From: an uncultured Clostridia bacterium
GTDB taxonomy: Bacteria; Bacillota; Clostridia; Oscillospirales; Oscillospiraceae
Direction of reading: 5' to 3'
DNA length: 45,673 nucleotides
Assembly (NCBI GenBank): GCA_947165825.1
Contig: CAMVBX010000001.1
Location: 1 to 45,673 of the forward strand
In this document: positions 8,534 to 41,304 of the stretch, piece by piece
Layout of the letters: every line of letters begins with the position of its first letter
Position numbering within the stretch: the first letter of the stretch is position 1
Program-made: the position numbers and the translations under genes
Notes under the pieces: generated by a model
What the model was told of the DNA's origin: nothing
Database searches by the model: none
The model's input: only the letters and a program-made list of their open reading frames with translations

Positions 8534-8536
8534 GGT

Positions 8537-9835: not shown

Positions 9836-9838
9836 CCC

Positions 9839-17163: not shown

Positions 17164-17379
17164 ATGCCCACCTCCCGTTGAATCTGTTCGCATGCCGTAA
17201 GTATAGCACAGATGCGGAAAATCCGCATCCGGTTCTTTCCCGGCTGCGGGATGCGGAAAGGACTGCACCGGTATCCCCCGGACCTTGCGGCGAGCTGCAT
17301 TTTATGGTATCTTTGCAGACGGAAACCGGCTGCAGATCCGGGGAAGACCGGTACGGGAGAGGGGGGCTCGGCGTTGGCG

Positions 17380-18633
17380 ATGGATATCGGCGTTCTGGCT
17401 GCGCTGGCGCCGCTGCTGTTCCTGCTCCTGGGCCTGGGGTTCACGGTGGTGATCGACCCGTATATCCGGCGGGAGAACCGGCGGATCATGCTGGTCATCG
17501 TCCTGCTGTGCCTCACGCTGATCGCGCAGAATCTGGTGGAAAACAGCCTCGCCTCGGGACCCGCGCGGGTGACGGGAAGAACGCTGGTATCCGTTTACGG
17601 TTATATTGTGCGCCCGGTTTTCCTGATCCTGTTCCTGTATATCGTGCATCCGGAAGGGAAGCACTGGCTTTGGTGGGGGCTTGCGGCCGGGAATGCGGCT
17701 GTCTGCCTCACGGCGCTGTTTTCCGATATCTGCTTCATGATCGGCAGCGACAACCACTATCACCCCGGGCCTCTGGCGAACACGACCCTCTATATCAGCG
17801 CAGTTCTGTTGGCCAATCTTCTGGTTCAGACGCTGCGGAGCCGCCGGGAAGCCGGAAAGCAGGAAAAATGGATCCCGGTCTTCATCGCGGCCATGATCGT
17901 GCTCTCCGTCCTGATGGACAGCCGGGTACAGGCGGCGGCGGACCAGCCTGTCGCTTTCCTGACCATCGCCATCGTGGTGGGCAGCGTATTCTATTACCTC
18001 TGGCTCCATCTGCAGTTTGTCCGGGGGCATGAGCAGGACCTGAGGGCGGCTCAGCGCATCACGATCATGGCATCCCAGATCCGGCCGCATTTTCTCTACA
18101 ACACCATCGCCACGATCAGAGCCCTGTGCAGGCGCGATCCGGAAAAGGCGGAGAAGGTAGCGGAGGATTTCGGCCGGTACCTGCGGCAGAACATGGATTC
18201 TCTGGAGAGCGCAGGGCTGATCCCCTTTGAAAAAGAGCTGGAGCACACGCGCTGCTATGCCGATATTGAAATGGTGCGGTTCGAGAACATCCGCGTGGAG
18301 TACGATATCGGGGACCGGGTATTTACATTGCCCCCCCTGACAGTGCAGCCTATGGTGGAGAACGCGATTCGCCATGGCGTCCGGATCCGGAAGGAAGGCG
18401 TGGTCCGGGTGAGTTCCCGCTTCACGGACGGCTGCCATGAGATCCGGATACAGGATAACGGGATCGGATTTGACGTAAACGCCATAGAGGCAGCCGGGGG
18501 CCCCCATATCGGCATCCGCAACGTGCGGGAGCGGATCGAAACGCAGTGCGGCGGTTCGCTCCTCCTGGAAAGCCGGATGGGAGAAGGGACAACGGTCATC
18601 ATCCGGATCCCCGGGCGGAGGGAAAAAGCATGA
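17380..18633 (+). CDS. Sensor histidine kinase, LytS/YehU-type (His_kinase + HATPase_c) with polytopic N-terminal sensor
   Basis: About six N-terminal TM helices, the phospho-acceptor motif IRPHFLYNTIATI and the ATPase motif VQPMVENAIRHGV. The start is uncertain; the ATG at 17380 was chosen and its RBS is weak. Confidence 0.8.
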   Translation: MDIGVLAALAPLLFLLLGLGFTVVIDPYIRRENRRIMLVIVLLCLTLIAQNLVENSLASGPARVTGRTLVSVYGYIVRPVFLILFLYIVHPEGKHWLWWGLAAGNAAVCLTALFSDICFMIGSDNHYHPGPLANTTLYISAVLLANLLVQTLRSRREAGKQEKWIPVFIAAMIVLSVLMDSRVQAAADQPVAFLTIAIVVGSVFYYLWLHLQFVRGHEQDLRAAQRITIMASQIRPHFLYNTIATIRALCRRDPEKAEKVAEDFGRYLRQNMDSLESAGLIPFEKELEHTRCYADIEMVRFENIRVEYDIGDRVFTLPPLTVQPMVENAIRHGVRIRKEGVVRVSSRFTDGCHEIRIQDNGIGFDVNAIEAAGGPHIGIRNVRERIETQCGGSLLLESRMGEGTTVIIRIPGRREKA

Positions 18634-19442: not shown

Positions 19443-19462
19443 CCCCACCGCCCCGGATGAAG

Positions 19463-19505
19463 AAGCCGTTTTTTTCCAAGAAACTGGAAGGAACGGCTTT
19501 TCTAT
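19463..19505 (+). terminator. Weak terminator candidate after the response regulator
   Basis: Stem aagccgtt / aacggctt around a long, partly paired loop, followed by a T-rich tctatt. Confidence 0.35.
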
Positions 19506-19536
19506 TGGACATTTATTGGACACGGACGGATAGACT
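19505..19536 (+). promoter_or_regulatory. Direct-repeat (TTGGACA-N4-TTGGACA) activator-type promoter, copy 1
   Basis: ttggaca ttta ttggaca cggacgga tagact. Two identical heptamers have 11-nt periodicity. The 3' heptamer lies 8 nt from a TAnnCT -10-like hexamer. The first 28 nt are identical to 40166-40193. Confidence 0.55.
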
Positions 19537-19555
19537 GTTTTCGGAAAGAGAATCG

Positions 19556-19782
19556 GACCCATGTCCCGTTCCGGGACATGGGCCAGACTGTAGACAAACC
19601 CGAAAATGGAACGAAAACGGGAAGGAAGATAGCGCGAAAGAAACCCAGGAGGGGTGTCTTTCGCGTTCAATCAGAAGTTTTTCGAACAATTTCTACCGTA
19701 TTTCCTGTTCGAAAAACTTGCTTCAGCGGGGCGACAAGACTTTGTCGACACGCTGACCCATGTCCCGTTCCGGGACATGGGC
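19556..19782. repeat. 227-bp hairpin-rich element bounded by ~43-nt imperfect inverted repeats (MITE/REP-cluster-like or structured 5' leader)
   Basis: The identical 28-nt gacccatgtcccgttccgggacatgggc occurs at 19556-19583 and 19755-19782. Each copy has an 11-bp stem and a 3-nt loop. The adjacent flanks cagactgtagacaaa (19584-19598) and actttgtcgacacgctga (19739-19756) are inverted relative to each other. Internal hairpins lie at 19633-19665 (9 bp) and 19678-19716 (11 bp). Confidence 0.6.
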
Positions 19783-19821
19783 AGCCGTCGGACGATCCGC
19801 CGCGGGAAAAGGAGTACGGCC

Positions 19822-20109
19822 ATGTCGGAACCTGGAAGCATATATGAACTGAGCGCCGATCAGCTGGAAGAGGTCAGCGGCGGAAGCCCGCAGCTCGGCA
19901 TCTACCGTCCCGGTTTCCGGTTCAGGGAAGAATCCCTGCGGTATTTTCGCCAGTGCGTCGGGGAGGAGACCTATGTCCGAGCCATGTCCAGCGAGGCGGG
20001 GCGGCGGCATCATTACGTCGTGGCCAGAGCGTTTCTGAGCCAGGCGGACTGGGAGAAATTCGTCTGGATCGAGCAGTTTGGCTCGCTGGACGGCTTTCCG
20101 GGCTGCTGA
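19822..20109 (+). CDS. Double-glycine-leader precursor protein (21-aa leader, 74-aa core)
   Basis: An AAGGAG RBS lies 7 nt before the ATG. The leader MSEPGSIYELSADQLEEVSGG fits the LSxxELxxIxGG consensus (L-12, L-7, V-4, GG). The core has two Cys, one of them the C-terminal residue. The gene lies immediately upstream of a C39-ABC exporter. Confidence 0.75.
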   Translation: MSEPGSIYELSADQLEEVSGGSPQLGIYRPGFRFREESLRYFRQCVGEETYVRAMSSEAGRRHHYVVARAFLSQADWEKFVWIEQFGSLDGFPGC

Positions 20110-20121
20110 GGAGAGAAAGAG

Positions 20122-20541
20122 ATGGAAGAACAGAAAACCATATTCCGAAAAAAAGCGCTGGAGCGGATCTCCTCTCCGGATCAGCTGACGGATTATCTCT
20201 GCGTGACGAACCCCGGGATCTGGGTGATCCTTGCCGCGATCCTTGCGCTCCTGGTCGGCCTCCTTGCCTGGGGGACCATCGGAACGCTGGAAACCAGCGC
20301 CAGGGTCAAGGTGATCATCGCGGATCATACGGCGGAGGTCGTTCCCCTGGGCAGCGAGCGCCTGGCGGAGGGAATGACGCTGTGTGTCGCGTCCCAGGAG
20401 ACCGTCATCGCCTCCACCGGCAGGGACGATTTCGGCAGGATCTTCGGCGTTGCGGAGCTCCCCCTGCCGGACGGCGTTTATGACGGGACCGTTGTGGTGG
20501 AACAAACGCGGCCCATCGACTTCCTGCTGGAAAGCCGGTAG
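20122..20541 (+). CDS. Short HlyD-like accessory protein of NHLM-type bacteriocin exporters
   Basis: The N-terminus FRKKALERISSPDQLTDYL followed by one TM helix resembles the start of NHLM-system HlyD proteins (TIGR03794, from memory). The protein is only 139 aa. Confidence 0.65.
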   Translation: MEEQKTIFRKKALERISSPDQLTDYLCVTNPGIWVILAAILALLVGLLAWGTIGTLETSARVKVIIADHTAEVVPLGSERLAEGMTLCVASQETVIASTGRDDFGRIFGVAELPLPDGVYDGTVVVEQTRPIDFLLESR

Positions 20542-20548
20542 TCCGTTT

Positions 20549-22726
20549 ATGAGCGGAATGAAGATCCGGTCGCCCCTCGCCAGGGGCGTTGCCAGGGTCC
20601 CCGTGATCCTGCAGCTGGAGGCGCTGGAGTGCGGCGCGGCGGCGCTGGCCATGGTCATGGCGTACTACGGCAAATGGGTGCCGCTGGAGCAGGTGCGCCT
20701 GGACTGCGGCGTCTCTCGGGACGGGAGCAAGGCTAAAAACATCTATCTGGCGGCGGAGCGCTACGGCTTTTCCGTTCAGGCCTTCCGCATGAGCCCGGAC
20801 GCCCTGCGGGAAAAGGGACGGTTCCCCTGCATCATCCACTGGAACATGAACCACTTTGTGGTGCTGGACGGGTTCCGGGGAAGGCACGTGTACCTGAACG
20901 ATCCTGCCAGGGGGGCGATCAGGGTGACCTGGGAGGAGTTCGACCGCTCCTTTACCGGCGTGACGATCATCCCCGTTCCCTCGGAACGCTTCGAGCCCAG
21001 CGGCAAGCGCCGCAGCACCGTGGAATTTGCCCGGAAGCGCCTGGCGGGCGCAGGGGCGGCGGTGGCCTTTGCGATGCTGACCACGGCGATCTCCTATCTC
21101 TTCGGCATTGCCAACTCCGTCACCTCCCGGATCTTCATGGACCGGCTGCTGACGGGGATCAATCCGGACTGGCTCTATCCCTTCATCGGTCTGATGGTCA
21201 TTCTGGCACTGATCCAGCTCATCGTGGCCTGGGCGCAGACGGTCTACTCCCTCCGGATCAACGGGAAGATGGCCGTCATCGGCAATACCACATATATGTG
21301 GAAGGTGCTTCGCCTGCCCATGGAATTCTTTTCCCAGCGGCTGGCGGGAGATATCCAGTCCCGGGCGGCCATGAACGCCGCCATCGCGGGAACGCTGGTG
21401 AACACCTTCGCTCCGCTCCTGCTGAATACCGGGATGATGATCTTCTACCTGGTGCTGATGCTGCGGCAGAGCCCGATGCTGACGCTGATCGGACTGGTGA
21501 CCCTGGTGCTGAACATCTTCATGTCCAGAGTGATCTCCAATCAGCGGATCAATACCACCCGGGTACAGATGCGCGACGCCGGAAAGCTGGAGGCGGCCAC
21601 AGTCAGCGGCATCGAAATGATCGAAACCATCAAGGCAAGCGGCGCGGAGAACGGCTTTTTCCAGAAATGGGCGGGCTATCAGGCCTCCGTCAATCTGCAG
21701 AGCGGAAAGATCGCGCTGACCGACTCCTTTCTGGGCATGATCCCGACCCTTCTCAGCACCCTGGCCGACTGCGCCGTTCTGGTGCTCGGCGTATGGATGA
21801 CCATGCAGGGCCGGTTCACCCTGGGCGCGGTGCTGATGTTCCAGGGGTTTCTGGGATCCTTCATGTCCCCGGCCATGACCCTGGTGAGCGCGGGTCAGAC
21901 GATCCAGGAGATGCGCACCCAGATGGAGCGGGTGGAGGACGTGATGGAATACCCCACGGACGAAAACGTCCTGGAGCGGGAGCCGGAAGCCCCGGAGCTG
22001 GCCAAGCTCAGGGGAAATGTGGAGCTCCGAAACGTAACCTTCGGTTATTCCCGGCTGGAGGCGCCCCTCATCCGGGACTTCTCCCTGAAGCTGAAAACCG
22101 GTGACCGGGTCGCCCTGGTCGGGGCGTCCGGCTGCGGAAAATCCACGATCTCCAAGCTGATCTCCGGCCTCTATCCGCCCTGGAGCGGGGAGATCCTTTT
22201 TGACGGCAAGCCCCGGAACGCCTATCCCCGGGAGGTCTTGTCGGGCTCGCTGGCCGTGGTGGATCAGGACATCATCCTTTTTGAGGATACCATAGCCAAC
22301 AACATCAAGATGTGGGACGACTCCATTCAGGATTTTGAGATGATTCTGGCCGCCCGGGACGCCCGGCTGCATGAGGACATCACGAAGCTTTCCGGGGGGT
22401 ATCAGCATCGGCTGACCAGCGGAGGCCGCGATCTCTCCGGCGGCCAGCGGCAGCGGCTGGAGATTGCCCGGGTCCTGGCCCAGGATCCCACCGTCATCAT
22501 TCTGGATGAAGCCACCTCCGCCCTGGATGCAAGAACGGAAAACGAGGTCGTTCAGGCCATTCGGGACCGGGGCATCACCTGCATCGTGATCGCCCACCGT
22601 CTCAGCACCGTGCGGGACTGCGACGAGATCATCGTCCTGGACAAGGGCCGGGCGGTGGAACGCGGCACCCATGATGAGCTGATGGCGCTGGGCGGCCTGT
22701 ATGCGGACCTGGTGGCGAACGAGTAA
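20549..22726 (+). CDS. Peptidase C39 domain-containing ABC transporter (PCAT; NHLM ABC1-like)
   Basis: C39 motifs are LQLEALECGAAALAMV (catalytic Cys) and HWNMNHFVVLDG (His). A 6-TM domain follows. The NBD carries Walker A GASGCGKST, the signature LSGGQRQR and Walker B IILDEATSALD. The start is ATG 20549 (alternative 20558). Confidence 0.9.
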   Translation: MSGMKIRSPLARGVARVPVILQLEALECGAAALAMVMAYYGKWVPLEQVRLDCGVSRDGSKAKNIYLAAERYGFSVQAFRMSPDALREKGRFPCIIHWNMNHFVVLDGFRGRHVYLNDPARGAIRVTWEEFDRSFTGVTIIPVPSERFEPSGKRRSTVEFARKRLAGAGAAVAFAMLTTAISYLFGIANSVTSRIFMDRLLTGINPDWLYPFIGLMVILALIQLIVAWAQTVYSLRINGKMAVIGNTTYMWKVLRLPMEFFSQRLAGDIQSRAAMNAAIAGTLVNTFAPLLLNTGMMIFYLVLMLRQSPMLTLIGLVTLVLNIFMSRVISNQRINTTRVQMRDAGKLEAATVSGIEMIETIKASGAENGFFQKWAGYQASVNLQSGKIALTDSFLGMIPTLLSTLADCAVLVLGVWMTMQGRFTLGAVLMFQGFLGSFMSPAMTLVSAGQTIQEMRTQMERVEDVMEYPTDENVLEREPEAPELAKLRGNVELRNVTFGYSRLEAPLIRDFSLKLKTGDRVALVGASGCGKSTISKLISGLYPPWSGEILFDGKPRNAYPREVLSGSLAVVDQDIILFEDTIANNIKMWDDSIQDFEMILAARDARLHEDITKLSGGYQHRLTSGGRDLSGGQRQRLEIARVLAQDPTVIILDEATSALDARTENEVVQAIRDRGITCIVIAHRLSTVRDCDEIIVLDKGRAVERGTHDELMALGGLYADLVANE

Positions 22727-22741
22727 GGCGGGGACGAGGAC

Positions 22742-24931
22742 ATGGGCTGGTTTGAGAACCAAATCGAAGAAAGACGCAGGGCCGACCAGCAGCTGCTGGA
22801 GGACTCCTTCCGCAAGATCGCCGGCGTGGTGCTGGGACAGCGCGCGGCGGAGAAGATCGGCGATGCCCGGATCGTCACGAAGGGCGCCATCGATGAGATC
22901 CTGAAGCACTATCATATCCAGCCGACGGAGCTTCCGGAGGACATCGCGGATACAGGCGACCAGCTGGATTATTGTCTGCGGCCCCATGGCATCATGCACC
23001 GCACCGTGGAGCTTGCGGAGGGCTGGTATCGGGACGCGTTCGGCCCCATCCTGGCCTTCACGAAGGAGGAAAGGATCCCCGTGGCGCTGCTGCCCGCCGC
23101 GATCCGCGGCTACAGCTTCACCGATCCCCGGACCGGGAAACGGGAAACCCTCAACAAGGTCACCGCCGCCCGCTTCGCCTCATCGGCGATCTGCTTTTAT
23201 CGGCCGCTGCCGCCCAAAAAGCTGGGGATCCCCGATCTCCTTCTGTACATGAAGCGCTGCGTGACCCTGAGCGATGTCGTCCTGATTGTTGCGGCAACGC
23301 TGGCGGTATCGGCAGTTGGACTGCTCATGCCCCGGATCACCAAGGCCCTGACCGGTCCGGTGCTCCTCAGCGGACGGAGCAGCGCCCTGATCGGCATCGC
23401 GGTGGCCATGGTCTGCATTTCCATCTCCTCCCGGCTCCTCAACAGCACGAAGGGGCTGGTCGGGAATCGCCTGGAGCTCAAGACCACACTGGGGGTGCAG
23501 GCGGCCATGATGATGCGGCTCCTGTCCCTTCCCGCGAGCTTTTTCCGGCAATACAGTCCGGGGGAGCTGAAAAGCCGCGCCATGTCGGTGAAGCAGCTCT
23601 GCTCCAGCATGCTGAGCATGGTCATGACGACCGGGCTGACATCTCTCACCTCCCTCCTGTATGTGGGACAGATCTTCCGTTATGCCCCGGCGCTGGTGAT
23701 CCCCTCCCTGATCACCATCCTTATCACGGTGGCGGTTTCTGCGGCTGCGACTTTAATGCAGATCGGGATCAGCCGGAAGCACATGGAGCATGCTGCCAAA
23801 GAATCCGGCATGAGTTACGCGCTGATCACCGGCGTACAGAAGATCAAGCTGGCCGGCGCGGAAAAGCGGGTCTTTGCCAAGTGGCTGGATGTATATGCCG
23901 AAGGCGCGGAGCTGGAGTATAACAGTCCGGCGTTTATCAAGCTGAACGGCGTGTTCTCCCTGGCGATCAGCCTTTTTTCCACCATCGTCCTGTACTATAC
24001 CGCGGTGAGCAGCGGCGTTGACCAATCCTCGTATTACGCCTTCACCGCATCCTATGGGATGCTCATGGGCGCGTTCCTGTCGTTGGCCGGAGTCGCCCTG
24101 TCCGCTGCCCGTATCCGGCCGATTCTGGAAATGGCTGAACCCTTCCTGCAGACCCCGCCGGAAACCGCGGAGGGCAAAAAGCCGGTGACAAGGCTCACCG
24201 GGAGCGTCGAGCTGGAGCATGTGTCGTTCCGGTATGGGAAGAATGAGCCGTATGTCCTGAACGATCTGTCGCTGAAGATCCGGGCGGGGGAGTATGTCGC
24301 CGTGGTAGGCAGGAGCGGCTGCGGCAAGTCCACCCTGGTCCGCCTGCTGCTGGGCTTCGAAAAGCCGGATACGGGAGCGATATTCTATGACGGCAGGGAT
24401 CTGGACAGCCTGGATCTGCCCTCCCTGCGCAGGAAGATCGGCACGGTCGCCCAGGACGCGGGACTGTTCCAGGGAGATATTTATTCCAATATCGTGATTT
24501 CCGCTCCGGAGCTTACGCTGGACCAGGCCTGGGAGGCTGCCGAAACGGCGGGCATTGCCGAGGAGATCCGGGCTATGCCCATGGGTATGCATACGCTCAT
24601 CTCCGAGGGGCAGAACGGGATTTCCGGCGGTCAGCGCCAGCGCATCATGATCGCCCGCGCCATAGCGCCGAAGCCGAAGCTGCTGATTTTCGACGAGGCG
24701 ACCAGCGCATTGGACAACCGGACCCAGCGCCGGGTCTCCGAAGCCCTGGATGCCATGGGCTGCACCCGCATCGTCATCGCCCATCGGCTGAGTACCATCC
24801 GGCACTGTGACAGGATCCTGGTGCTGGACGGGGGAAGGATCGTGGAGGACGGTACCTACGATCAGCTGATCGAACAGAACGGCTTTTTCGCCGAGCTGGT
24901 GGCGCGGCAGAGACTGGATACCGCTGGATAG
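22742..24931 (+). CDS. ABC transporter permease/ATPase without peptidase domain (NHLM ABC2-like)
   Basis: 729 aa. An N-terminal non-peptidase domain of about 160 aa is followed by a TMD. The NBD has GRSGCGKST, ISGGQRQR and LIFDEATSALD. Confidence 0.9.
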   Translation: MGWFENQIEERRRADQQLLEDSFRKIAGVVLGQRAAEKIGDARIVTKGAIDEILKHYHIQPTELPEDIADTGDQLDYCLRPHGIMHRTVELAEGWYRDAFGPILAFTKEERIPVALLPAAIRGYSFTDPRTGKRETLNKVTAARFASSAICFYRPLPPKKLGIPDLLLYMKRCVTLSDVVLIVAATLAVSAVGLLMPRITKALTGPVLLSGRSSALIGIAVAMVCISISSRLLNSTKGLVGNRLELKTTLGVQAAMMMRLLSLPASFFRQYSPGELKSRAMSVKQLCSSMLSMVMTTGLTSLTSLLYVGQIFRYAPALVIPSLITILITVAVSAAATLMQIGISRKHMEHAAKESGMSYALITGVQKIKLAGAEKRVFAKWLDVYAEGAELEYNSPAFIKLNGVFSLAISLFSTIVLYYTAVSSGVDQSSYYAFTASYGMLMGAFLSLAGVALSAARIRPILEMAEPFLQTPPETAEGKKPVTRLTGSVELEHVSFRYGKNEPYVLNDLSLKIRAGEYVAVVGRSGCGKSTLVRLLLGFEKPDTGAIFYDGRDLDSLDLPSLRRKIGTVAQDAGLFQGDIYSNIVISAPELTLDQAWEAAETAGIAEEIRAMPMGMHTLISEGQNGISGGQRQRIMIARAIAPKPKLLIFDEATSALDNRTQRRVSEALDAMGCTRIVIAHRLSTIRHCDRILVLDGGRIVEDGTYDQLIEQNGFFAELVARQRLDTAG

Positions 24932-24999
24932 CCCGTACGCTGAAACCGGGCTTTTCGGAATACAGATCGAAAACCAATATAGATTAGGAGGATATTGCA

Positions 25000-25161
25000 G
25001 TGGAAAACGTGAAAAAGACAGATTTGCCGGAGAAGGATACGGAACAGGTCGCCCTGGAGCCTAACGAGCTGAGTCAGGTGGCGGGTGGGGGAGATCCCTT
25101 CGCCGATATCCCCAGGGTGCCGGAGAATCCCATTGACGATGAGCTCAGGAAAGACGGTTAA
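25000..25161 (+). CDS. Small GG-leader peptide A1 (53 aa; predicted 23-aa core GDPFADIPRVPENPIDDELRKDG)
   Basis: Not in the supplied ORF track. A GTG start lies 8 nt after the AGGAGG at 24986-24991, and there is an in-frame stop at 24985. The leader ...LEPNELSQVAGG fits the double-glycine consensus exactly. The peptide is a paralog of A2. Confidence 0.7.
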   Translation: MENVKKTDLPEKDTEQVALEPNELSQVAGGGDPFADIPRVPENPIDDELRKDG

Positions 25162-25174
25162 GGAGGAACGCACC

Positions 25175-25339
25175 ATGCTGGAACTGCGGAAGAACGGGAA
25201 AGGGACTGATCGGGAGCCGGAAAAGGTGGCGCTGGATCTCAACGATCTGGATCTGGTAACGGGATCCGGCGATCCCTTTGAAAATATCCCCCGGGTACCG
25301 GAAAAGGAGATCGATCCCGAGCTCCGGAACGATGCCTGA
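25175..25339 (+). CDS. Small GS-leader peptide A2 (54 aa; predicted 23-aa core GDPFENIPRVPEKEIDPELRNDA)
   Basis: An internal ATG of the listed 84-aa ORF lies 8 nt after an AAGGAGG that overlaps the A1 stop. The leader is ...LDLNDLDLVTGS. The core is 16/23 identical to A1. Confidence 0.75.
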   Translation: MLELRKNGKGTDREPEKVALDLNDLDLVTGSGDPFENIPRVPEKEIDPELRNDA

Positions 25340-26708
25340 ACGGCGGGAGCTGACCGGGCGGACCGGGATCTGCGTTCTTGCGGCGATCCTGCTCCTGGCG
25401 CTTCTCTCCATCTCTTCCCCCGCTCCGGCTGCAGCCGCCGGGGAGACGGCGTATATCGTGAAGATCAAGGCGTCCGATGCCCCGTTCACCGTTGTCGGGG
25501 AAGGGGAGATGCGGCGTCTGGACCGGGCCGGGCTCCTGGAATGGGCGGAGCCCGATGGGGAAGCTCAGCTGCTGGGCACCCTGTCCCCCTACTATGCGGA
25601 TGAACAGTGGAACCTGGATATGATCGGCGCGGAGGCTGCCTTCCGGCAAAACTGTCTTGGGCAGGGGATCCGGGTGGGCGTCCTGGATTCCGGCGTGAAT
25701 CCCCATCCGGACTTCGGGGACCGTCTGCTGCCGGGACATAACTACGTCCAGGACGCCGAGGATCCGGAGGACACCTCGGATTCCTACGGCCATGGCACCC
25801 GCATCGCGGGCCTCGTCGCCGCTGCCGGCGAAGCGGGATATATCGGCACCGCCCCCGGAGCGGAGATCGTACCCATCAAGGTAACGGATGGAAAATCCGT
25901 CAAGGTCAGCGTCATTTGCGAGGCGATCTACGGGGCGATCGACGACTTCGGCTGCCGCGTTCTGAACTTGAGCATGGGCGTGCGGACAGACTATCAGTCC
26001 CTGCGGGATGCCGTGGCCTATGCGGAAGCCAGGGGCGTCGTGGTGGTTTCCGCGGCGGGCAACAGCGGCACCTCCGCCATGTACTACCCCGCCGGGTACG
26101 AAACGGTCATCGGCATCGGAGCGGTGGACTGCAACAGCGTGCTGTATTACCACTCCGATCACAATGAAAGCGTTTTTCTGACCGCCCCGGGGGTGGATGT
26201 GCGCAGCACGGCCTCCCGCGGCGGCTATACCGCCTCTACAGGCACCAGCTTCGCGGTGCCCCAGGTATCCGGCGCGGCGGCGGTGCTGCTGGGGATGGAC
26301 GGCGGTCTGAGCCCGGAGGAGATCCGGAGGATTCTGGCAGAAACCGCCAGTGATGCCGGAGACGAGGGCTATGACGAGTATTTCGGCTACGGGATCCTGA
26401 ACCTGGCGGGCTGCGTCTCCCGCCTGACGGAAGGGGAAGAACTGCCCGGGGAACCGTGCAGTTTCCTCCCGGAAACAGGTCCCGCCGCAGCGGTCCGCAG
26501 CAACGTGAACGAAGAAATCGATTGCACCTATCTGCTGGCCGAATATGACACGGACGGCGTCTGCCTGAGCGTGCAGACATGGCGTTTTACTCTCCCGGCC
26601 GGAGGAATTGCGGAGCTCACCCTTCCCGAGGAAAACGCGAACTACGGACAGTTTCTCTATGATTCGAAAACCCTGTGCCCCCTGGCCGAGGCGCGCAAAT
26701 CGCACTGA
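25332..26708 (+). CDS. Secreted subtilisin-like serine protease (peptidase S8)
   Basis: Its ATG overlaps the end of A2 (an 8-nt overlap). It has a signal peptide or anchor, ICVLAAILLLALLSISSPAPAAAA. The catalytic motifs are VGVLDSG (Asp), SYGHGTRIAG (His) and GTSFAVPQVSG (Ser). Confidence 0.9.
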   Translation: MPERRELTGRTGICVLAAILLLALLSISSPAPAAAAGETAYIVKIKASDAPFTVVGEGEMRRLDRAGLLEWAEPDGEAQLLGTLSPYYADEQWNLDMIGAEAAFRQNCLGQGIRVGVLDSGVNPHPDFGDRLLPGHNYVQDAEDPEDTSDSYGHGTRIAGLVAAAGEAGYIGTAPGAEIVPIKVTDGKSVKVSVICEAIYGAIDDFGCRVLNLSMGVRTDYQSLRDAVAYAEARGVVVVSAAGNSGTSAMYYPAGYETVIGIGAVDCNSVLYYHSDHNESVFLTAPGVDVRSTASRGGYTASTGTSFAVPQVSGAAAVLLGMDGGLSPEEIRRILAETASDAGDEGYDEYFGYGILNLAGCVSRLTEGEELPGEPCSFLPETGPAAAVRSNVNEEIDCTYLLAEYDTDGVCLSVQTWRFTLPAGGIAELTLPEENANYGQFLYDSKTLCPLAEARKSH

Positions 26709-26740: not shown

Positions 26741-29700
26741 ATGAGAAAACCATTTGTCCGAATCCTTGCGGCGCTTCTCATCGTCTTGATGCTGTTCCAG
26801 CTTTCCGGGGAGAGCATCGCCTATGCGGCGGACACGCTGGACAAGGCGCTCAACCCGGAGAAACAGATCGAACTCATCGTGCCGCAGTCGCTGCAGGATG
26901 GGGAAAACTACTTCTTCATCCGGGAGGATACCTTCACCATCAGTGAGAAGAGCAGCGAAAAGCTGTATATCCCCATCCAGCGGACCGGAGACATAGATGC
27001 GGCGACGGACGTGACGCTCAAGGTCATCGACATGTCCGCCCACTTCGGCGTGAACTATGAAGCCAGGATCTGTGACGAAAAGACGGCTCCCGTGACGATC
27101 CTGAACGGCATCGCCGTGATCGATCTGTTCCTGTATGCCGATGAGCAGATCGAAGCCGAACCGATCGACGAGGATGAACTGGGCACCATATTGACCGAGA
27201 ATGGCGGAAGCGGGGATATCCTGGCGCCGGACGGTGAGGTCGTGGGCTCGATTTCCGCTGTCCCTCTGGATGAAAACGGCAATCCGATCCCACCCGAAAC
27301 GGGCGGGACAGCATCGGCTGCGCCTGCGGCGGAGCCTGGCGATGAGGGAGAATCCGTCCCCAATGCGTCGGCGGAGGCTGAGGCGGAGGAAACTGCGCTT
27401 GCGGAGGACGGAGAACCGGAGGAGGAACCCCTGTCTCCCCCCCGGAGCCTGATGGCCGCCCGCAATGCCTTCACCGGGACCCAATCCGACCGACAGCAGC
27501 TGGCAGGCGGCGATACCTTCGGCGCTCTGTCTCCCGCTCAGCGTCTGGAAGCGGCGCAGGAGGGGCAGCAGCGCACCGACGCGGAGATCGCGGCGGAAAA
27601 CTACCCCGGTCGGGAATACGCCCTGCATTTCGAAGCCGGGGAGATCGTCAAATTCCTGGAGATCACCCCCAAGTATTCCGAGGCTGCCGATGGGGACAGC
27701 ACCATCATCCTCATGCTGAAGGACTTGCCGGATAACGCCGTCGTCCCGGAGGACTTCAATATGCGCTCCGTCGTCATCACCGACGAGGATGAGCATGAGG
27801 AGGTCGTCATCAGCCTGACCCAGGAGACGATCCGCGCCGAGGACGGGAAGGCGGTCATCACGGTCACCCGTACCGGCCGCATCAACGATCTGGTGGGCGT
27901 CATGCTCTCCTCCCAGGATGGCAGCGCCGTTGCCGGGGACGATTACGGCGGCGTGGGGGCCAAACTCTGGTTCTCCATGGGGATCACCTCCCGTACGGTG
28001 GAATTGCCGGTGGGCCACGGGGCTGAGGAGAAAGACTTCACCGTGACCATCGCGCCTCTGCCCACCATGCCTGACGTGAAGATCGGATTGGCCAGCGCCC
28101 GCGTTATCATCCCTGCCGGGGAGAAGGCGGATGACGGCGAGCTGATGGCCAGCACGGACCTGTACGGCGACATGTGGAACCTGCGGGACAGGACCCGGAA
28201 GATCACCGGCAAGGTGAATTATGACAGCGATACGACCGTCAGCTACAGGACCAGCCTCGATAAGTGCGAGACACAGTACATCTCCCTCTACACGGACAGA
28301 GACTATGCCTGGGACGGCATCCACGTAGTATACGACTACCACACCTGGTATTCCAAGGGCAAAGTTGATGTGGAATTGAATAACGGCGACGGCAACTGGG
28401 TCCGTGTTTTCCGTAAAGACTGGGGCGACCTGGACGAGAAGTGGAAGCGAGAGCAGATTGCCGACGCCTATTTCGGCCAGTTAGAGGGACCCTGGATCAT
28501 CAGCATCGATAACTATACCTATGAGGTTCATAACGGCTTCCGGGACAGCCATTCCGACATCGTCGTAACAAGCGTGCAGCCCATCAAGCGGCAGTTCACC
28601 ATCAAGATGCTGGCGCCCGAGGCCCTCTCCTTCGAGGGAATGACGGAGGCGGAGGTGCTGGCCCGGTATGAGCAGGTCATGCTGGACTCCGGCCTGGATA
28701 CCTCCGTGACCCTGTATACCGGGGACAATTTCTCCATCTCCCGTCTCAGCAGCCCGGAGATGGCCCGGCTCGTGGGGATCGAGGCGGTCCGGTCCGACGG
28801 CATGACGTACCGGATCGCAAACATCACCGGCAGTAACGGCACCGCCACGGTGGAGCTGAATCCGCGCCTCATCAACTTGCTGGCCGGTTACGGCTACATC
28901 GAATGGAAGGAGAGCAAAGGCTCCTACTCCGGCACCATCCAGGTCCGGCCGGTATTCGACTACGTGAAGAGCGTCACCGTCCAGGTCCGGGATTCCGCCT
29001 ACGGGACCCTCTGCCTGGAGGACGAGCCCCCTCTCCGCTGGGAATTCGATTCTGACCAGATGATCAACGTCTGTATGGGCGCCAACTCCCGCCACAACGT
29101 CGACTGGCAGGGAGAAACGGATAATGCGGGCAACGATTACTATACCTTCACCGCCACGGGAGACGACCCTTACGTCTCCATCGACATGCCTTACGCGAAC
29201 GCCTCCAAGCTGGTCTGGGTCAAGGTCCGGGCCAGGAACCTCTGCGGGGCGGACGCCATTGAGCTCTTCGGCAAGTTCAACGATACGGGTCCCGAAGGCA
29301 CAAGCTGCGTCCATATCGATCTGGAGCAGGACAAGGAATGGCACACCTACCTGGTGAACATCCCGGAGTCGAATATCCAGACCGTCAACGCCTATAAAGG
29401 AGCCACCATCAGCACGACCACCTGGAAGGGGAAGGCCAACTGGCTCCGGCTGGATCCCGTGTGGAATGAAAACTCCTCCGCGCGCTCCGGCGATCAGATC
29501 CAGATCGACTACGTGGCTTTCTTCTCCGACAAGGAGAAGGCGGAATCCTATCATAACGGCACCGCCGCGGGCACTACCCTCACCGCCGGCAGGCATACCT
29601 TCCATTACGGCGATAAGCTGGTCTTCCTCCCCAACCTGGATCCCGCCTGGGCGGGCCGGATGCGGGCCCTGGGCATTTCCAGCGAGAGCCGCAGGAACGG

Positions 29701-32700
29701 ACCTGCCGGGACGCTGACCGGGAAGAACGACGGGTATTACGTGGGTGAGGATGGGGCCGATCAATGGTCCGTCACCCTGGATCAGGATTACTATGAATTC
29801 TGGCAGTTCTACACGGATGTGGACAACCTGGTGCAGGTCCAGATCCCCGTATCCGACGCGGAGTATTTCGATACCGAAAAGGGCCTCTTCGCAGGGCTTG
29901 CCCCCACAGTCAGCGGGAACTATCAGATCTGGACGGTGCGGGAGAGCGTCCTGACCAACGAACTGGTGGACCTGATCGCTCTGCCGAAGGACAGCAGCCA
30001 TGTGCCGGTCTGGACTCTTGCCGGAAACGGAAATACGTATTCCGGCAGCGAATTCTTCTTCTTCGCCGGGGTACAGGCCTCGGACAATCTGGTTACCCTC
30101 CGGATGGACCGGACGGCGTCCGATCACGCCTGGTACTCCCTCCGGGGCACCGCCTGCTACTCCACCCTGAATCTGGAGAGCGGGAATGAGGCGGACGATC
30201 TCTATCCCGCAGAGTTTGCCCGGATCACTTCCGCCCTGTCCGGCACCGAGTCGGGCCGGGACGGCGATTTTACCCTGGAGCCCATGTACTTGCTGGGCGG
30301 CAGCATCGTGCGCTACATCGTGCATTTTAACGGCACCTCCATGATCCGGGAGGTCAAGGTGGCCCCGGCGAATGCCGCCACCGAAACGGTGAATTACCTG
30401 GATGCCGCGGGCGGCTATTCGCAGATCCGGGCCATCCCTGTGGATCTGGGGAACGTGAAGGTGGAGGGGTGGTCCCGTACAGGCGCGCATTTTTCCAATG
30501 TCAGCGTGACCCTGGCCAACTTCAACCCCGAAGTCATCACCGCCATGGAGATGAACGGCAAGACCCTCACCGTGAAAATCACGGTGGATCCGGGGCAGCC
30601 GTACATCTGGGAGGGCGCGCAATGCAGAGAGACCGTCACAGAGGTGACCCTCTGGTTCCAGAGCCAGCTCACCGGAGAGATCCACGGGATCTACTCCACC
30701 ACCCTGCAGGAGGGAGAGACGAGCCCCGGCCTCACCTGGAACCAGATGACGAATACCGCCACCCTGACCATCCGGAGATTCTCACCGGACGCGCCGGAAA
30801 AGTACACCTACGGCGATGTGATGATGCTCCAGCTCACCACCGATAAGAAAACCTCTGCAGGCGGGAGCGGCCTGATGGTCTATCAGCCCGTGTCCAGCGG
30901 CTATACCGTCATCACCGACCAGAACTATGTACCGGAAACCTATGAAGAGGATGTGGACATGTCCAGCATGCTGGATGCGGCCCTCTCCGAAGAAAACAAG
31001 ACCCGTTACAGCTTTGGTCAGTTCCCCTGGCTGGGAAACATCACCGGGGTCTTTGCCACCTTTTCCTATTTTGTCAGCTCCGGATTCAACAATACCGCGC
31101 AGATGATCCTGGACGATCTGCAGCTCATGGAGGATGGGGACGCGGAGCTCATGGCCGGCGTTCTCCCGCGCAAGGCGGCCATCAGTGCGGCAGTGGCCTT
31201 CAAGGAACTCCCCTACGGCGGCGTCCGCACCATGATTGCCGTGGCCGTATCCTTCGGCAATGCCGCCTATTCCAGACGGGCCAATCCCTATCAAGCGAGG
31301 GAAGTCGCGTCTACCTTCCTGAGCGGCATTACCAGCGGCAGCAGCGGAGACCTGCTCTATGGAGGCGGCCAATTCAACGGCGGCGAATCCCTGGTCCAAA
31401 GCGAGCTGGGCGGATCATACATCTACTTCACCATCTATGTGGGCCTCTATCTCGACTGGGGCTTCATTGAGAAAGCCGTGACCGACAGCGACGGTGAGAC
31501 GGAACAGAGCCACTTCGCCCTCTTCCTGGGCGCCGGGGGCTTCTACGGCATCAGCATGACCGGCGGCTATACGAAATACGTTTTCCCCTGGGGCGTTCCG
31601 GTGTATTTCAATATTGAGGCGAATATCGACCTGACGGTATTCCTGGGGTCTTCTGCGGATCCCCAAAAGACGCTGGAATCCTTCTACGAGACTTCAGACC
31701 ACAAGGGACAGGACTTCGCCTTCAATATGGAGATTTATGCAGATGCCGGGCTGAAGCTTACCATCGGTGTCGGCCTCTACAAGATCATAGGCGTCCGGGC
31801 ATCCGGCGGTGTCGGGGTCCAGGCCGGCCTGAGCCTGCGCATGGCGGACTGGTTCCCGGATCTGGAAGGGGCCGATACCCTCAGCGTCTCCACCGATGCC
31901 ACGTTCTCCGGTTCCGTTGACCTGATCGTGACCAGTATCGATCTCTGGAGCGCCTCCTGGCCGCTGCCCCTGGGCTATGGCTGGCTGCAGTATTTCCAGC
32001 AGATGCGCCGGGCGAATATCCTGATCCATTTTATCAACGAGGAGATCAACGAGCACAGAGGTTCTCAGGCAGCCAGAGACGAATGTCGCCGGCTGGCCGA
32101 CGAGCTGGGCGCCTATGTGGACGCCTATCAGGGTACCGGCAAGGCGCTGAAAAAGCTGGTGGACCACCTCAACGACTATGCCTATGATCATGGCATCATC
32201 CGGCCGGAGCACTGGGCCCGGGTCAATATGATTCGGCAGGGCGGCTTGCTGGGCAACATGGCGGAAAGCTACTATGCCTGGATGATGGAGGACGACGGGC
32301 AAAGCAGCCTCTTCCATACCCGGGACCATGTGGATACCCGCTGGGTGGCGGGGGAGGACGCCTCTCTTATGGCGGCCTTCGGCCCGGTGAGCACCGCAAA
32401 GCTTGTGGAGAATGCGGTCTCCCAGCCCGCGGCGCAGATCGCGGCCCTGGGGAACAACCGCTTCCTTGCGGTCTTCCTGGACGACGACGCAAGCCGGGAC
32501 CGCCAGCAGGCCGGCGTACTGAAATGGGCGGTTTACGATGCAAACACAAACGCATGGACGGCCCCGCAGACCGTACAGGATGACGGGACCGCGGACGGGC
32601 GTCCCAACCTCATCGACGGCGGGGACAAGCTGATCCTCTCCTGGTCCTCCATCCCGCAGGAAAAGTACGCCGCGATGAAGCTGGAGGTCGCCAGGGAGCT

Positions 32701-35700
32701 GAACGTCGCAGATTACAATGAAGAAACTGAGGTCTACACCATCACCGACGACACGGCTGTGCTCCGCACCCTGGAGACGAACCCGGATCGGGTAATGAAC
32801 CTGATGGACATCTTCACCGCGGAGTTCAGCAAGAGCAGTTTCACCTTCGGCCCCATCACCCAGCTCACGGACGACGACTATTACGACGACGGGCCCCAGG
32901 CGGTGTACGACAGTGAGACCGGCGACTATGTCATCCTCTACTATAAGACCGCCCAGGATACGGAGGCCTATGCCGATGCGGAGGACCGGCTGCTGGATCT
33001 GGTAAACTCCAACGCGGATCCCAACCGGACCTACGGCGTCATGTGCTACATGCTCTACAACAATCAGACCGAGACTCCGGATACCAAGGGCCTTACCCAT
33101 GCCTCCGGCTGGGCGAGGGATTATCTCTTCCCCAACGAGACGGATCTGGCTCCGGCAGCGCAGGCCGCTTTCCTGGCAGCCTGGGGCGGTCAGCGTTTTC
33201 TGGCCTCCGCGATCAAGTCCGTCGGCCCGGACGGGAGAGTAATCCAGTCTGACGCGCCCATCGCGGACCTGACCGTCTGCAGCGGATATAACGGTCTTGC
33301 GGCCTATGCCTTCACGGTGGATATGGACTATAACGTGGACACCGCTGAGGACAAGGAGCTGTTTGTGCAGTTCTATCGCTTTGCCGACCATAAGACCTAT
33401 GTGCCGGTGAAGGTGGCGGGTGAGGCTGTGAAGGAAAAGCTGAACTCCGCTGTGCGTGACGCGAACAGAAGAACCATCGTTCCGGCCACGGTCACCGAGG
33501 CGGTGACGCCCGTGAACGTGGGACAGCCCAAGCTGATCCGCAACGAAGGCTCCACCTGGCTTTTCTGGCGGGAGGACGAGCGAGGCCTGCGCTACCTGAA
33601 CATCTCCGAGCTGCTCAACAAGAAGCTGGAGACCGGGCCGGGGGACGACGATTGGGTCTATGCCCTGCAGGATAACGGCACCTTTGCCACGGATCCCGAT
33701 ACCGGAAAGCCCTATGAGCCTGAAGCCCAATGGGTGGATTTCGGCTCCGCCATGACGGATGGGAAAATGACCATCACGGACTACCAGGTCGTCACGGACC
33801 GGGACGATAATCTCTACGTGGTCTGGACCGACCTTCATAGCTACGAAGTACAGGATGACATTCTGGAAACGACCATCTCCAACCCGGCGCAGGCCATCTA
33901 CGCCTCGGCCAAGATCAAGCAGACGAACAGCGACGTGAAAGAGGGAGAAGTGGACAGCATCGCCCGCTGGTCCAAGCCCTACCGGCTGACGAAGGACAAC
34001 TCCTCCAACGACGGCGTCACCATCGCCCTGGATGACAACGGCGGGCTGATCCTGCTGCACAACCAGTTCTTTATGGAGCTGGCGGACACCGAGGCTGAGA
34101 TCGCCTACATGCTCGCAAACCATCTGGCAGGGGCCTATCATGACGAGGAAAGCGGCAACGACTATTTCCTGGGCTATCCCTATTACCCCAGCGGCATGAG
34201 CCTGATGGTGACCCGCTGCGAACCCATCGGCTCCGTGGAGGCCACGACGTTCGTCTTTGACGACGTCACCCCCGTGGCGGGACAGACTGTGCAGGTCGCA
34301 GCGGCGGTGGAGAATGTGGGCCTGACCAACGCCAAGGGCTGCGAGGTCCGATTCTATGAGTACAGGAACGGCGTACAGGGAAGGTTGCTGCAGACTGCTT
34401 ACAGCGAAGAGGAATTCCAGGTCAACTCGGCCAGGCAGGTCGTATTCGACTGGACCATCCCGGCAGACGGACCCGAGGGCTTCTGCATCCAGGCAGTGGC
34501 CAGGGAGAAGAGGGCGGACGGCACCTGGTACGATCCGACAGAGACCTTCTCCGAGCCCTTCGTTCCGAAGGCGGAATATGCGCCGGAGCTGGTGAAATGC
34601 GTGCAGAGCGGAGACGGCTTCGACGTGGAGTACACCGTGACCAATACCGGAAACCTGGCCGCGCCTCAGGGCATGAAGGCCGACCTTGTCCTTGAGGGAC
34701 TTTACGGCGACCTGAAGGAACAATACGGCATGGATGACGACCTGCTGATCACGGAGGACATCTCCGGCCTGGCCCCCGGGGAGACCCGGACCGTTGCGAA
34801 GACCATCGTCCTCCCGGTCACCGTCTTCCGGTTCTGCGGCTATGACGCCGTGACCGTCGTGGTGCGGGATCAGTACGACGAGGCTGTGAAGTGCACGGAT
34901 CACAGCTTCATCACCCTGGATGCGCCGCTGAACCTGGAGCTCAACGGCGGCGCGGAGCTGGCGCTCATGAGCGGTGAGAAAAAGACCGCCGCGCTTCGCT
35001 TTGACTCCACCGGATTTATGGATATCAGCGGAAAGACGAAATACTCCGTGTCCGATCCCGCCGTCGCCTCCGTGGATGAAAACGGCGTTGTCACCGGTAT
35101 CAGCGAAGGTACCGCCACCCTGACGGCCACCCTGATGCCCAGCGGCCGTACCGTGGAGATCCGGGTGACGGTGAGCGGTACGGCGGAGCCCGGCAGCTCG
35201 GATGTACCGACGATTCGGGAGTACATGATCGGTCTGAGCGGACGCCTGGAGAACGGCACGGTGCAGACCGGCGCCAACAGCGCCATCCCGGGGAGCCGGG
35301 TCACGTTTACGCCGAAGCCGGAGGAGGGCTATACCGTCGGGACGGTCACCGTGACCAACCGGAACGGCATCCCGCTGGAGCTCATCGACAACGGGGACGG
35401 CACCTGGAGCTTCATCATGCCGGCGGAAAACGTGAGGATCGGTGTGGAATTTGTCCCGGCTGGCGCCCCGGCTGAGGAACCCCCGGCGCCGGATCAGCAG
35501 TTTGCGGATGTGCCCGCGGGGACCTGGTTCACCGACGCGGTGGCCTGGGCTGTGGCACAGGGGATCACCAACGGCACGGACGAGACGCATTTCAGCCCGG
35601 ATGTGCCCTGTACCCGGGCGCAGATGGTGACCTTCCTGTGGCGCGCGGCAGGCAAGCCCGAGCCTGCGGGAGGGGAGATGCCCTTCCAGGACGTGGCGAA

Positions 35701-40165: not shown

Positions 40166-40205
40166 TTGGACATTTATTGGACACGGACGGATATTCTGCT
40201 ATACT
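40166..40205 (+). promoter_or_regulatory. Direct-repeat (TTGGACA-N4-TTGGACA) promoter, copy 2
   Basis: The 28 nt at 40166-40193 are identical to 19505-19532. The 3' heptamer lies 8 nt from tattct (40192-40197). Read as a sigma-70 promoter instead, TTGGAC (40177-40182), a 17-nt spacer and TATACT (40200-40205) also fit. It lies about 100 nt upstream of the STAS gene. Confidence 0.6.
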
Positions 40206-40601: not shown

Positions 40602-40620
40602 GCGGAGGGAGAAGAGCGGA

Positions 40621-41238: not shown

Positions 41239-41304
41239 GGCACAGTACGGCATAGACGAAGGAAACGGCGCTGCCACGAATATGGGAAGAGGAGACGGAA
41301 GGGT

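Follow-up and report, generated by a model that had tools for sequence, protein, structure and literature searches.

Exporters of the PCAT kind (ABC, or ATP-binding cassette, transporters that contain a peptidase) and of the NHLM kind are usually taken as markers of bacteriocins or of peptides synthesized by ribosomes and modified after translation (RiPPs). In the NHLM cassette to which LahT belongs, an accessory gene is followed by ABC1, which carries a C39 peptidase, and then by ABC2 (Haft 2010, PMC2887384; PMC6363468), and exporters of this type are classically RiPP-associated (PMC2887384). The peptidase LahT150 (Protein Data Bank, PDB, 6MPZ), from a Lachnospiraceae lanthipeptide cluster, has been characterised experimentally: it recognises only the last ~13 leader residues, requires hydrophobic residues at -4, -7 and -12, and cuts after GG, GA or GS (PMC6363468). 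Here we analyse an exporter of this kind at 19.5-26.7 kb of a 45.7-kb stretch of DNA (the window, from contig CAMVBX010000001.1) of an uncultured rumen Clostridia bacterium. It lies in a two-component regulon with two unannotated cargo families, represented by a 95-residue protein, p95, and by two small peptides, pep1 and pep2. We compared the window with about 50 related loci (labelled L001 onwards) from metagenome contigs and species-representative genomes, whose named sources are all uncultured Clostridia, mainly from rumen samples.

Two further described systems resemble parts of this layout. The ComCDE/ComAB and BlpRH/BlpC/BlpAB systems of streptococci also place a double-glycine (GG) leader gene by a kinase-regulator pair, use a PCAT exporter, and have a direct-repeat promoter of the regulator-bound kind, implying positive feedback; in the window, regulator binding is predicted. 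PCAT1-CtA of Clostridium thermocellum (PDB 4RY2, 6V9Z) sets a C39 ABC exporter beside a ~90-residue GG-leader cargo of unknown function.

The window locus is best fitted by a regulated circuit in which secretion serves signalling and cell-surface functions, the cargo functions being those we infer from gene context. We hold with moderate confidence that it is one regulated secretion operon for unmodified GG-leader cargo of two separate families, and not a bacteriocin or RiPP locus. Literature searches for such an architecture returned nothing specific. In the literature and family libraries searched, both families of cargo, the module of kinase, regulator and p95 under its TTGGACA operator, the pairing of the small peptides with a giant S-layer homology (SLH) protein, and the minimal accessory protein of the exporter all appear to be undescribed. 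Judged by its profile and peptidase matches, the transporter itself clearly belongs to a known kind and is close to LahT.

Exporter and leader determinants

The exporter is of NHLM type in its ABC subunits and departs from that type in its accessory protein. A preliminary description of this DNA had listed seven genes between 19.5 and 26.7 kb, all of which are present on the plus strand, tightly packed and with good ribosome-binding sites (Table 1). It had read three of them as the three-gene NHLM exporter, and this stands in part. ABC1 scores 904.5 bits against TIGR03796 (cut-off 853.3) and ABC2 scores 727.2 bits against TIGR03797 (cut-off 709.4); because both exceed curated cut-offs, the exporter can be classed as NHLM-type in both ABC subunits. 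The 139-residue HlyD-like protein fails TIGR03794 (31.5 bits against a cut-off of 156.2), aligning with profile positions 1-54 of 421 only, and by this alignment looks like a truncated relative of that family, not a member. Its gene lies ahead of ABC1 in every exporter locus (33-99% identity).

ABC1 carries the C39 peptidase that the preliminary description had assigned to it (PF03412, E=3.8e-33). The domain is 62% identical to LahT150 (88/142 residues, E=1e-62) and also aligns with PCAT1 (E=3.5e-15) and ComA. The catalytic residues Q21, C27, H101 and D117 are invariant in nine homologues and align with PCAT1 and LahT150. For the N-terminal 170 residues of ABC2 we considered and rejected a degenerate C39-like domain (BLASTP E=0.99, hhalign probability 0.3%); a single-sequence AlphaFold2 (AF2) model of this region had a mean confidence (pLDDT) of 42 and was unusable.

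All three window leaders contain the determinants that LahT150 reads. Each has V-4, L-7 and L-12 followed by GG or GS, as expected of the short classical leaders claimed earlier: E-L(-12)-S-A-D-Q-L(-7)-E-E-V(-4)-S-G-G/S in p95, L(-12)-E-P-N-E-L(-7)-S-Q-V(-4)-A-G-G/G in pep1 and L(-12)-D-L-N-D-L(-7)-D-L-V(-4)-T-G-S/G in pep2, the slash marking the predicted cut. This register predicts a 74-residue mature p95 and two mature 23-mers, and it is kept in every homologous peptide. Short leaders had been thought anomalous for this exporter type, a view that does not hold, as LahT150, the nearest relative with a solved structure, cleaves short GG, GA and GS leaders (PMC6363468).

The locus appears to serve unmodified cargo. 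None of the three window cargoes matched the NHLP (TIGR03793) or Nif11-type (TIGR03798) precursor profiles, and no RiPP-modifying enzyme family occurs among the proteins of the entire window. Gaps between the module genes are 7-68 nt, so an immunity or modification ORF (open reading frame) cannot fit, and neither kind of gene lies beside the peptide genes in 14 related peptide loci. The preliminary description had likewise seen neither here. The window thus differs from the LahT/NHLM cassette in an accessory protein of only 139 residues, in the lack of an NHLP or Nif11 precursor or modification enzyme, in its predicted cargo of one folded 8.7 kDa protein and two unmodified acidic peptides, and in its two-component regulon. 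It shares with PCAT1-CtA a clostridial C39 exporter beside a GG-leader protein; unlike the window exporter, PCAT1 is a homodimer without an ABC2 partner, and a search of PDB sequences with p95 gave no CtA match.

Two cargo families with separate linkage

p95 combines a disordered leader with a predicted compact helical domain. In an AF2 model built on a 39-sequence alignment, residues 1-21 are disordered (pLDDT <50) and residues 30-90 form a predicted compact five-helix domain (pLDDT >90). A Foldseek comparison of the model with the PDB found nothing below E=4.8, that is, no fold match. The mature protein has an isoelectric point (pI) of 7.8 and a hydropathy average (GRAVY) of -0.48, in keeping with a soluble, neutral, compact domain. 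Homologues form 118 clusters at 54-91% identity, and the family comprises 69 representatives at 50% identity in 1.84e9 proteins, all stand-alone and ~70-120 residues long. Neither p95 nor the small peptides matched a Pfam or NCBIfam family, and their homologues are named only "hypothetical protein" in the sources. In PDB sequences, p95 drew weak nanobody/VH framework matches only (best E about 1e-3), recurring over residues 19-89 (GGSLRLSCAASGFTFS...WFRQAPGKE against GGSPQLGIYRPGFRFREESLRYFRQCVGEE). We set aside a VH relationship and judged these matches to be probably chance because AF2 predicts an all-helical fold.

p95 travels with the kinase and regulator. The three genes stand in the order kinase, regulator, p95 in nearly all of the ~35 loci with enough upstream sequence. 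The genes after p95 differ between loci: they are STAS/SpoIIE/HATPase_c_2 genes for partner switching, VanY, an M15 dipeptidase, DUF218 or those of the exporter. The last come directly after p95 in the window, L001/L013, L012, L021, L040, L041, L043 and L044, and within a few kb of it in L026, L028 and L035. L040 and L041 have the order regulator, p95, HlyD-like, ABC1, ABC2; in L041, glutamine synthetase and other housekeeping genes follow ABC2, and the stretch holds no other cargo gene. The metagenome-assembled genomes of L020 and L028 contain two kinase-regulator-p95 modules and one exporter.

The small peptides form a rare family with a conserved core. Only six clusters occur among 5.8 billion proteins, and DNA-level scans brought the count to 21 distinct core versions. 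The core is always 23 residues long, with the pattern x-D-P-F-x-x-x-P-R-V-P-x-x-P-I-D-x-x-L-R-x-D-[GA], and the leader varies freely. Invariant core residues use several codons (five for R9, four for R20 and three for L19), a synonymous variety that testifies directly to selection at the protein level. Mature pep1 and pep2 are near-duplicates of each other with a pI of 4.1-4.2, a GRAVY of -1.15 to -1.29 (pep1: 4.1 and -1.15), a net charge of -4 and no GxxxG motif. Comparison of the core with the giant protein, the S8 protease, the kinase and PDB chains gave insignificant similarity only.

These peptides travel with the giant SLH protein. In every peptide locus, a homologue of the giant gene comes shortly after a single peptide gene or a pair of them, with S8 sometimes intervening (the window, L001, L002, L004, L005, L013, L016, L043, L044, L046-L049, L051 and L052). 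The whole window arrangement recurs in L001/L013, L004, L043 and L044. Elsewhere the pairing persists as other parts come and go: with p95 and without exporter or S8 in L016, after DUF218 in L052, and after ABC2 without S8 in L051. In L045, L047 and L048 the peptides occur with a divergently transcribed exporter and without p95 or kinase. Of the 12 peptide loci whose upstream sequence is long enough to judge, 10 have the exporter; S8 occurs in 10-11 of 14, before or after the peptide genes.

Conservation of the cargo genes beside S8 and SLH genes had been set beforehand as a test, and it is observed. The preliminary description had also grouped the three cargoes as one set, which the linkage does not bear out: p95 tracks the kinase-regulator pair across ~35 loci, and the peptides track the giant SLH gene even where p95 and kinase are absent. 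By sequence and gene order, the "three cargoes" appear to be two unrelated families, p95 with the kinase and regulator and the small peptides with the giant protein. Nor does the functional unit end at 26.7 kb, as had been proposed; it extends at least as far as the giant SLH gene.

The S8 protease and the giant protein are both predicted surface or secreted proteins. S8 most likely starts at ATG 25332, overlapping the pep2 stop codon (ATGCCTGA), and not at the TTG 25278 given earlier. The window S8 bears just a signal or anchor at the N-terminus and a small domain at the C-terminus. In L045, L047 and L048 (for example L047 7977-9938) the protease has an acidic linker rich in Pro, Glu and Asp and ends in SLH domains, which imply that it is wall-anchored there. 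The SLH region of the giant protein matches Sap S-layer protein structures. A search with the giant N-terminus returned at least six fragmentary matches, two of them informative for context.

Related loci carry further GG-leader genes. In L035, a 107-residue protein (6910-7233) joins a canonical GG leader, LTDEVLENVSGG, to two CW_7 repeats (Pfam 7.3e-30); its gene directly follows a related ABC2, the exporter standing behind the same operator as in the window, and the product is a candidate PCAT-exported peptidoglycan-binding mini-protein. Together with the regulon neighbours (SLH proteins, M15 dipeptidase, VanY, DUF218 and polysaccharide deacetylase), this protein supports a wider cell-envelope theme for the regulon. 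L028 holds a radical SAM (rSAM)/SPASM maturase and two Nif11-leader Cys-rich precursors (GG followed by VCFADYDCYTAWNH...) between regulator and p95 (7507-9956), 7 kb upstream of a related exporter (Pfam Nif11 score 24.1, threshold 23.8); this insert is a genuine RiPP cluster within the shared island. In L047, the gene for a 98-residue Nif11-like precursor (7684-7980; TIGR03798 score 19.6, below 32.3) is flanked by a regulator-like gene and the S8-SLH protease and neighbours the divergent exporter; the precursor has a GG site, and its 23-residue core, LSPSERQAAWKDWFVTWTGAENA, is rich in Trp.

The two-component system and its direct-repeat operator

Immediately upstream of the module is a two-component system, as the preliminary description had reported, and the parts of that system differ in family from those of ComCDE and BlpRH, as it had also stated. 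The kinase has six hydrophobic segments with short external loops only, followed by PF06580 (7.7e-20) and PF02518 (7.4e-12) domains; its true start lies somewhere within the first ~80 codons of the ORF. It is thus LytS-like (PF06580), where the streptococcal kinases are HPK10. The regulator pairs a receiver with an OmpR/SARP-type winged helix (Trans_reg_C) in place of LytTR. A BTAD domain (PF03704) was not detected in it even at E<=1, and ~55 residues follow the winged helix. Regulator homologues are 56-91% identical and always lie between kinase and p95. The window further departs from the streptococcal systems in its candidate signal, a 74-residue folded domain as against a peptide of 17-27 residues, in its heterodimeric NHLM-type exporter, and in a regulon of cell-envelope and SLH genes, not of competence or bacteriocin genes.

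An activator-type promoter had been proposed upstream of p95; it is real and conserved in 30 distinct instances, and the start of the module as first drawn, 19505, is the first base of its operator. The operator, TTGGACATTTATTGGACA, consists of two TTGGACA repeats 11 bp apart. Its exact form occurs upstream of p95 in 25 related loci, and a one-mismatch form, TTAGGACA, in others. A TAnnnT hexamer, most commonly TACAAT, TATAAT or TAAAAT, follows the 3' repeat at exactly 8 nt in 29 of the 30 distinct instances. The window contains two copies of the operator pattern against a chance expectation of 0.2.

This geometry is that of SARP-type promoters, in which repeats lie 11 or 22 bp apart and the 3' repeat is 8 bp from the -10 box (PMC10936776), and the 29 instances obey that rule. 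As in SARP/PhoB-type class II activator promoters, the -35 region is overlapped by direct repeats of 7 bp that recur every 11 bp. The arrangement fits a regulator with a Trans_reg_C winged helix and no detected BTAD. Unlike SARP activators, the window regulator is a receiver-domain, phosphorylation-dependent protein from Clostridia, and the TTGGACA repeat is specific to its family.

The second, identical operator precedes a separate set of genes (40305-44099): a STAS anti-sigma antagonist (40305-40601), a 205-residue protein, a STAS-APH-HATPase_c_2 protein and DUF218. The same genes directly follow p95 in L006, and the exporter-peptide-S8-giant-SLH block of the window therefore looks as if it was inserted into a conserved regulon. 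L035 also has two operator copies, one before the exporter genes and another before p95. No plus-strand terminator is predicted between 19.5 and 40.1 kb, so the first transcription unit may span p95 through the giant gene to the M15 gene; inside the module, sigma-70 promoter and terminator scans gave nothing above shuffle expectation. The regulator ATG overlaps the kinase stop codon, and the start-stop overlaps at 18630-18633 and 25332-25339 suggest translational coupling.

Between operator 1 and p95 lies a lineage-specific insertion of ~200 nt. Identical 28-nt palindromes (GACCCATGTCCCGTTCCGGGACATGGGC, 19556-19583 and 19755-19782, 199 nt apart) stand at its two ends, with no plus-strand T-runs after them, and it is absent from L044, where the operator is 112 nt from the ATG, and from other loci. 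We rejected a 25-nt palindrome upstream of p95 as a conserved operator: it is absent from all other loci and belongs to the insertion. RNA hairpins or a small mobile element are candidate identities. Some gene callers run ORFs through the operator, as in ORF 19418-19756 and in the p95 homologue P0153, adding F-L-D-I-F/Y-W-T-R to the p95 N-terminus, a possible source of misannotated long p95 forms.

Proposed circuit, alternatives and surrounding genes

In the model we propose, the regulator would bind the TTGGACA repeats overlapping the -35 region. Operator 1 would drive p95, the exporter, the two small peptides, S8 and the giant SLH protein, and operator 2, at 40.17 kb, the STAS/HATPase_c_2/DUF218 operon. 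An ABC1/ABC2 heterodimer with the 139-residue accessory protein would read the leaders through the hydrophobic -4, -7 and -12 residues, and the C39 domain would cut after GG in p95 and pep1 and after GS in pep2. The predicted exports, all unmodified, are a folded helical protein of 8.7 kDa and two acidic 23-mers. p95 would feed back on the polytopic kinase, making a positive loop like that of ComC/BlpC from unrelated parts. Outside the cell, the 23-mers would serve the giant S-layer-anchored protein as ligands or as co-factors in its assembly or processing, and the surface S8 would probably act on the peptides or on that protein.

The two cargo roles carry different weight. For the 23-mers, an extracellular partnership with the giant SLH protein, possibly involving S8 as well, is the most likely role suggested by the comparisons, because the pairing is strict, the core nearly invariant and the peptides acidic, rich in proline and hydrophilic; the same features argue against a pheromone or toxin. 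For p95, a secreted signal or co-factor acting back on the kinase is a tentative proposal by analogy. It is favoured because p95 adjoins the kinase and regulator, sits behind the operator and is often beside an exporter, as in ComC/BlpC logic. Our confidence in it is low because about a quarter of the family lacks GG, most loci lack a local exporter and the kinase loops are short. Rather doubtful as a whole is a bolder version, in which p95 is a folded 8.7 kDa autoinducer of new fold that a PCAT cleaves and exports and a polytopic LytS-like kinase senses, closing a positive loop through a promoter of SARP geometry; this would be a quorum or envelope-signalling circuit with all parts new to this purpose. 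In the same version the 23-mers (DPF...PRVP...PID..LR) are secreted partners that the giant protein requires, as ligand, cap or assembly factor.

Several observations weigh against the circuit as drawn. At the promoter, the regulator has no detectable BTAD domain, the -10 box of operator 1 is weak (TAGACT), and the ~200-nt insertion separates operator 1 from p95. Among p95 homologues, ~25% have no GG, GA or GS motif, which means that export may not be universal in the family, and fully canonical -4 and -7 residues occur in only ~35-40%. Within 10 kb of most kinase-regulator-p95 loci there is no exporter, so the model has to assume that p95 is exported in trans. As a ligand, a folded protein of 8.7 kDa would be out of the ordinary for a kinase whose extracellular loops are only short. 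On the peptide side, a distant giant homologue (41% identity, L053/L054, on a low-GC human-gut contig) has no peptide upstream, and the near-invariant core with its variable leader is the opposite of pheromone diversification and gives no direct clue to a target.

The distribution of p95 bears on whether it is exported at all. It could be a cytoplasmic accessory regulator, an anti-kinase or connector whose GG-like N-terminus is vestigial, with the window exporter serving the two small peptides only. Most loci do link p95 to the kinase and regulator and not to an exporter, the members without any GG motif include many distant ones, and a soluble, neutral, compact helical domain would suit such a role. 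Yet the window leader is fully canonical (V-4, L-7, L-12, GG) and predicted to be disordered, GG leaders recur in the distant members P0134, P0145, P0147, P0148, P0153, P0172 and P0178, and in L035 exporter and p95 stand behind the same operator. In L040 and L041, moreover, the exporter adjoins p95 with no other cargo gene before the housekeeping genes after ABC2, and we regard a purely cytoplasmic p95 as unlikely, though less so for family members without a GG motif. The converse assignment would make the small peptides the kinase pheromones, like ComC, and p95 an unrelated co-regulated product; tandem genes for 23-residue GG-leader peptides by a PCAT exporter and a two-component system do resemble ComC/BlpC loci. 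Six peptide clusters against 118 p95 clusters, however, confine the peptides to a small subset of kinase-regulator-p95 loci, and L047 and L048 carry them with no kinase nearby, in step with their tracking of the giant SLH gene. Near-invariant cores under variable leaders also reverse the course of pherotype evolution, which makes this assignment improbable.

Processing into a modified product is about as improbable. The peptides, p95 or both could be RiPP precursors whose modifying enzymes lie elsewhere in the genome, a reading encouraged by the classical association of NHLM-type exporters (PMC2887384), by the rSAM/SPASM cluster beside p95 and exporter in L028, and by the precedent of conserved cores in some cofactor-type RiPPs. 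L028, however, is the sole locus with rSAM/SPASM and has its own Nif11-type precursors, and no modifying enzyme accompanies the peptide genes in the window or in 14 loci of varied context. The cores have none of the Cys, Ser/Thr-rich or Trp/Lys motifs of known crosslinks, and p95 is a confidently folded domain and not a peptide scaffold. The preliminary description had already found a bacteriocin less plausible than signalling or surface remodelling, and we agree that an unmodified class II locus, with a two-peptide bacteriocin or a large p95 bacteriocin under quorum control, is very improbable, even though the layout, which combines a two-component system, tandem GG-leader peptides, a C39 ABC exporter and its accessory protein, speaks for one. 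The peptides are strongly acidic and hydrophilic (pI 4.1, GRAVY about -1.2, charge -4), have no GxxxG and are near-duplicates, not complementary partners, and the gaps admit no immunity ORF. Bacteriocins evolve fast, whereas both families here evolve slowly, p95 retaining 54-91% identity across many lineages; NCBIfam and Pfam gave no bacteriocin match but one of 16 bits to a leader only.

The secretion circuit that we favour has practical consequences. A conserved kinase-regulator-p95 module with a defined operator makes regulator binding and the signal role of p95 directly testable. The pairing of 23-mers with a giant SLH protein suggests an unrecognised way to build or control Gram-positive surface structure, and p95 and the CW_7 mini-protein of L035 support the idea that these transporters export small folded proteins. 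The locus is also a caution for genome-mining pipelines, which would label such loci RiPP-like or class II bacteriocin.

Table 1. Positions of the features discussed, counted in nucleotides from the first base of the window
Feature	Position	Strand	Evidence or detail
Sensor histidine kinase, ~6 transmembrane helices, then His_kinase PF06580 and HATPase_c	17212..18633	+	Pfam
Response regulator, receiver and OmpR/SARP-type winged helix	18630..19442	+	PF00072 5e-21, PF00486 4.8e-10
Operator-promoter 1: TTGGACA (19505-19511), 4 nt, TTGGACA (19516-19522), 8 nt, TAGACT (19531-19536)	19505..19536	+	
Insertion of ~200 nt in p95 leader region, lineage-specific	19556..19782	+	bounded by two identical 28-nt palindromes
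p95, 95 residues: 21-residue double-glycine leader ELSADQLEEVSGG (predicted cut before S) and 74-residue, 8.7 kDa predicted all-helical domain	19822..20109	+	AF2
Single-transmembrane accessory protein, 139 residues, truncated HlyD-like	20122..20541	+	transmembrane segment at residues 25-43
ABC1: C39 peptidase, transmembrane domain and ATPase	~20549..22726	+	TIGR03796, PF03412
ABC2: second half-transporter, 170-residue N-terminal domain of unknown fold	22742..24931	+	TIGR03797
pep1: 30-residue leader LEPNELSQVAGG and 23-residue core GDPFADIPRVPENPIDDELRKDG (predicted cleavage)	25000..25161	+	GTG start, strong GGAGG ribosome-binding site
pep2: 31-residue leader LDLNDLDLVTGS and 23-residue core GDPFENIPRVPEKEIDPELRNDA (predicted cleavage)	25175..25339	+	strong GGAGG-type ribosome-binding site
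S8 subtilase, secreted, N-terminal signal or anchor	25332..26708	+	PF00082 1.5e-49
Giant 3,093-residue surface protein: signal peptide, Calx-beta, Big_2, CARDB, three C-terminal SLH domains	26741..36022	+	Pfam
Operator-promoter 2: identical TTGGACATTTATTGGACA (40166-40183); TATTCT 8 nt and TATACT 16 nt downstream	40166..40205	+	

The genes around the module are of mixed kinds. The upstream flank encodes a GH2 enzyme, DUF2284, an esterase and TldD/PmbA; the downstream flank encodes SLH proteins, the M15 dipeptidase, the STAS-APH-HATPase_c_2 protein and DUF218. TldD/PmbA proteases process microcin B17 in E. coli, yet they are widespread housekeeping genes. In the window the TldD/PmbA metalloprotease pair lies on the minus strand (8537-11224), ~8 kb upstream of the module, and the related loci showed no tie between it and the module. 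Scanning the window for Rfam families and for tRNAs found neither. The left contig end differs in composition from the rest, with a GC content of 0.68 and an AT skew of +0.29 in the first kb and a GC content of 0.49-0.52 at 1-3 kb, against ~0.62 elsewhere.

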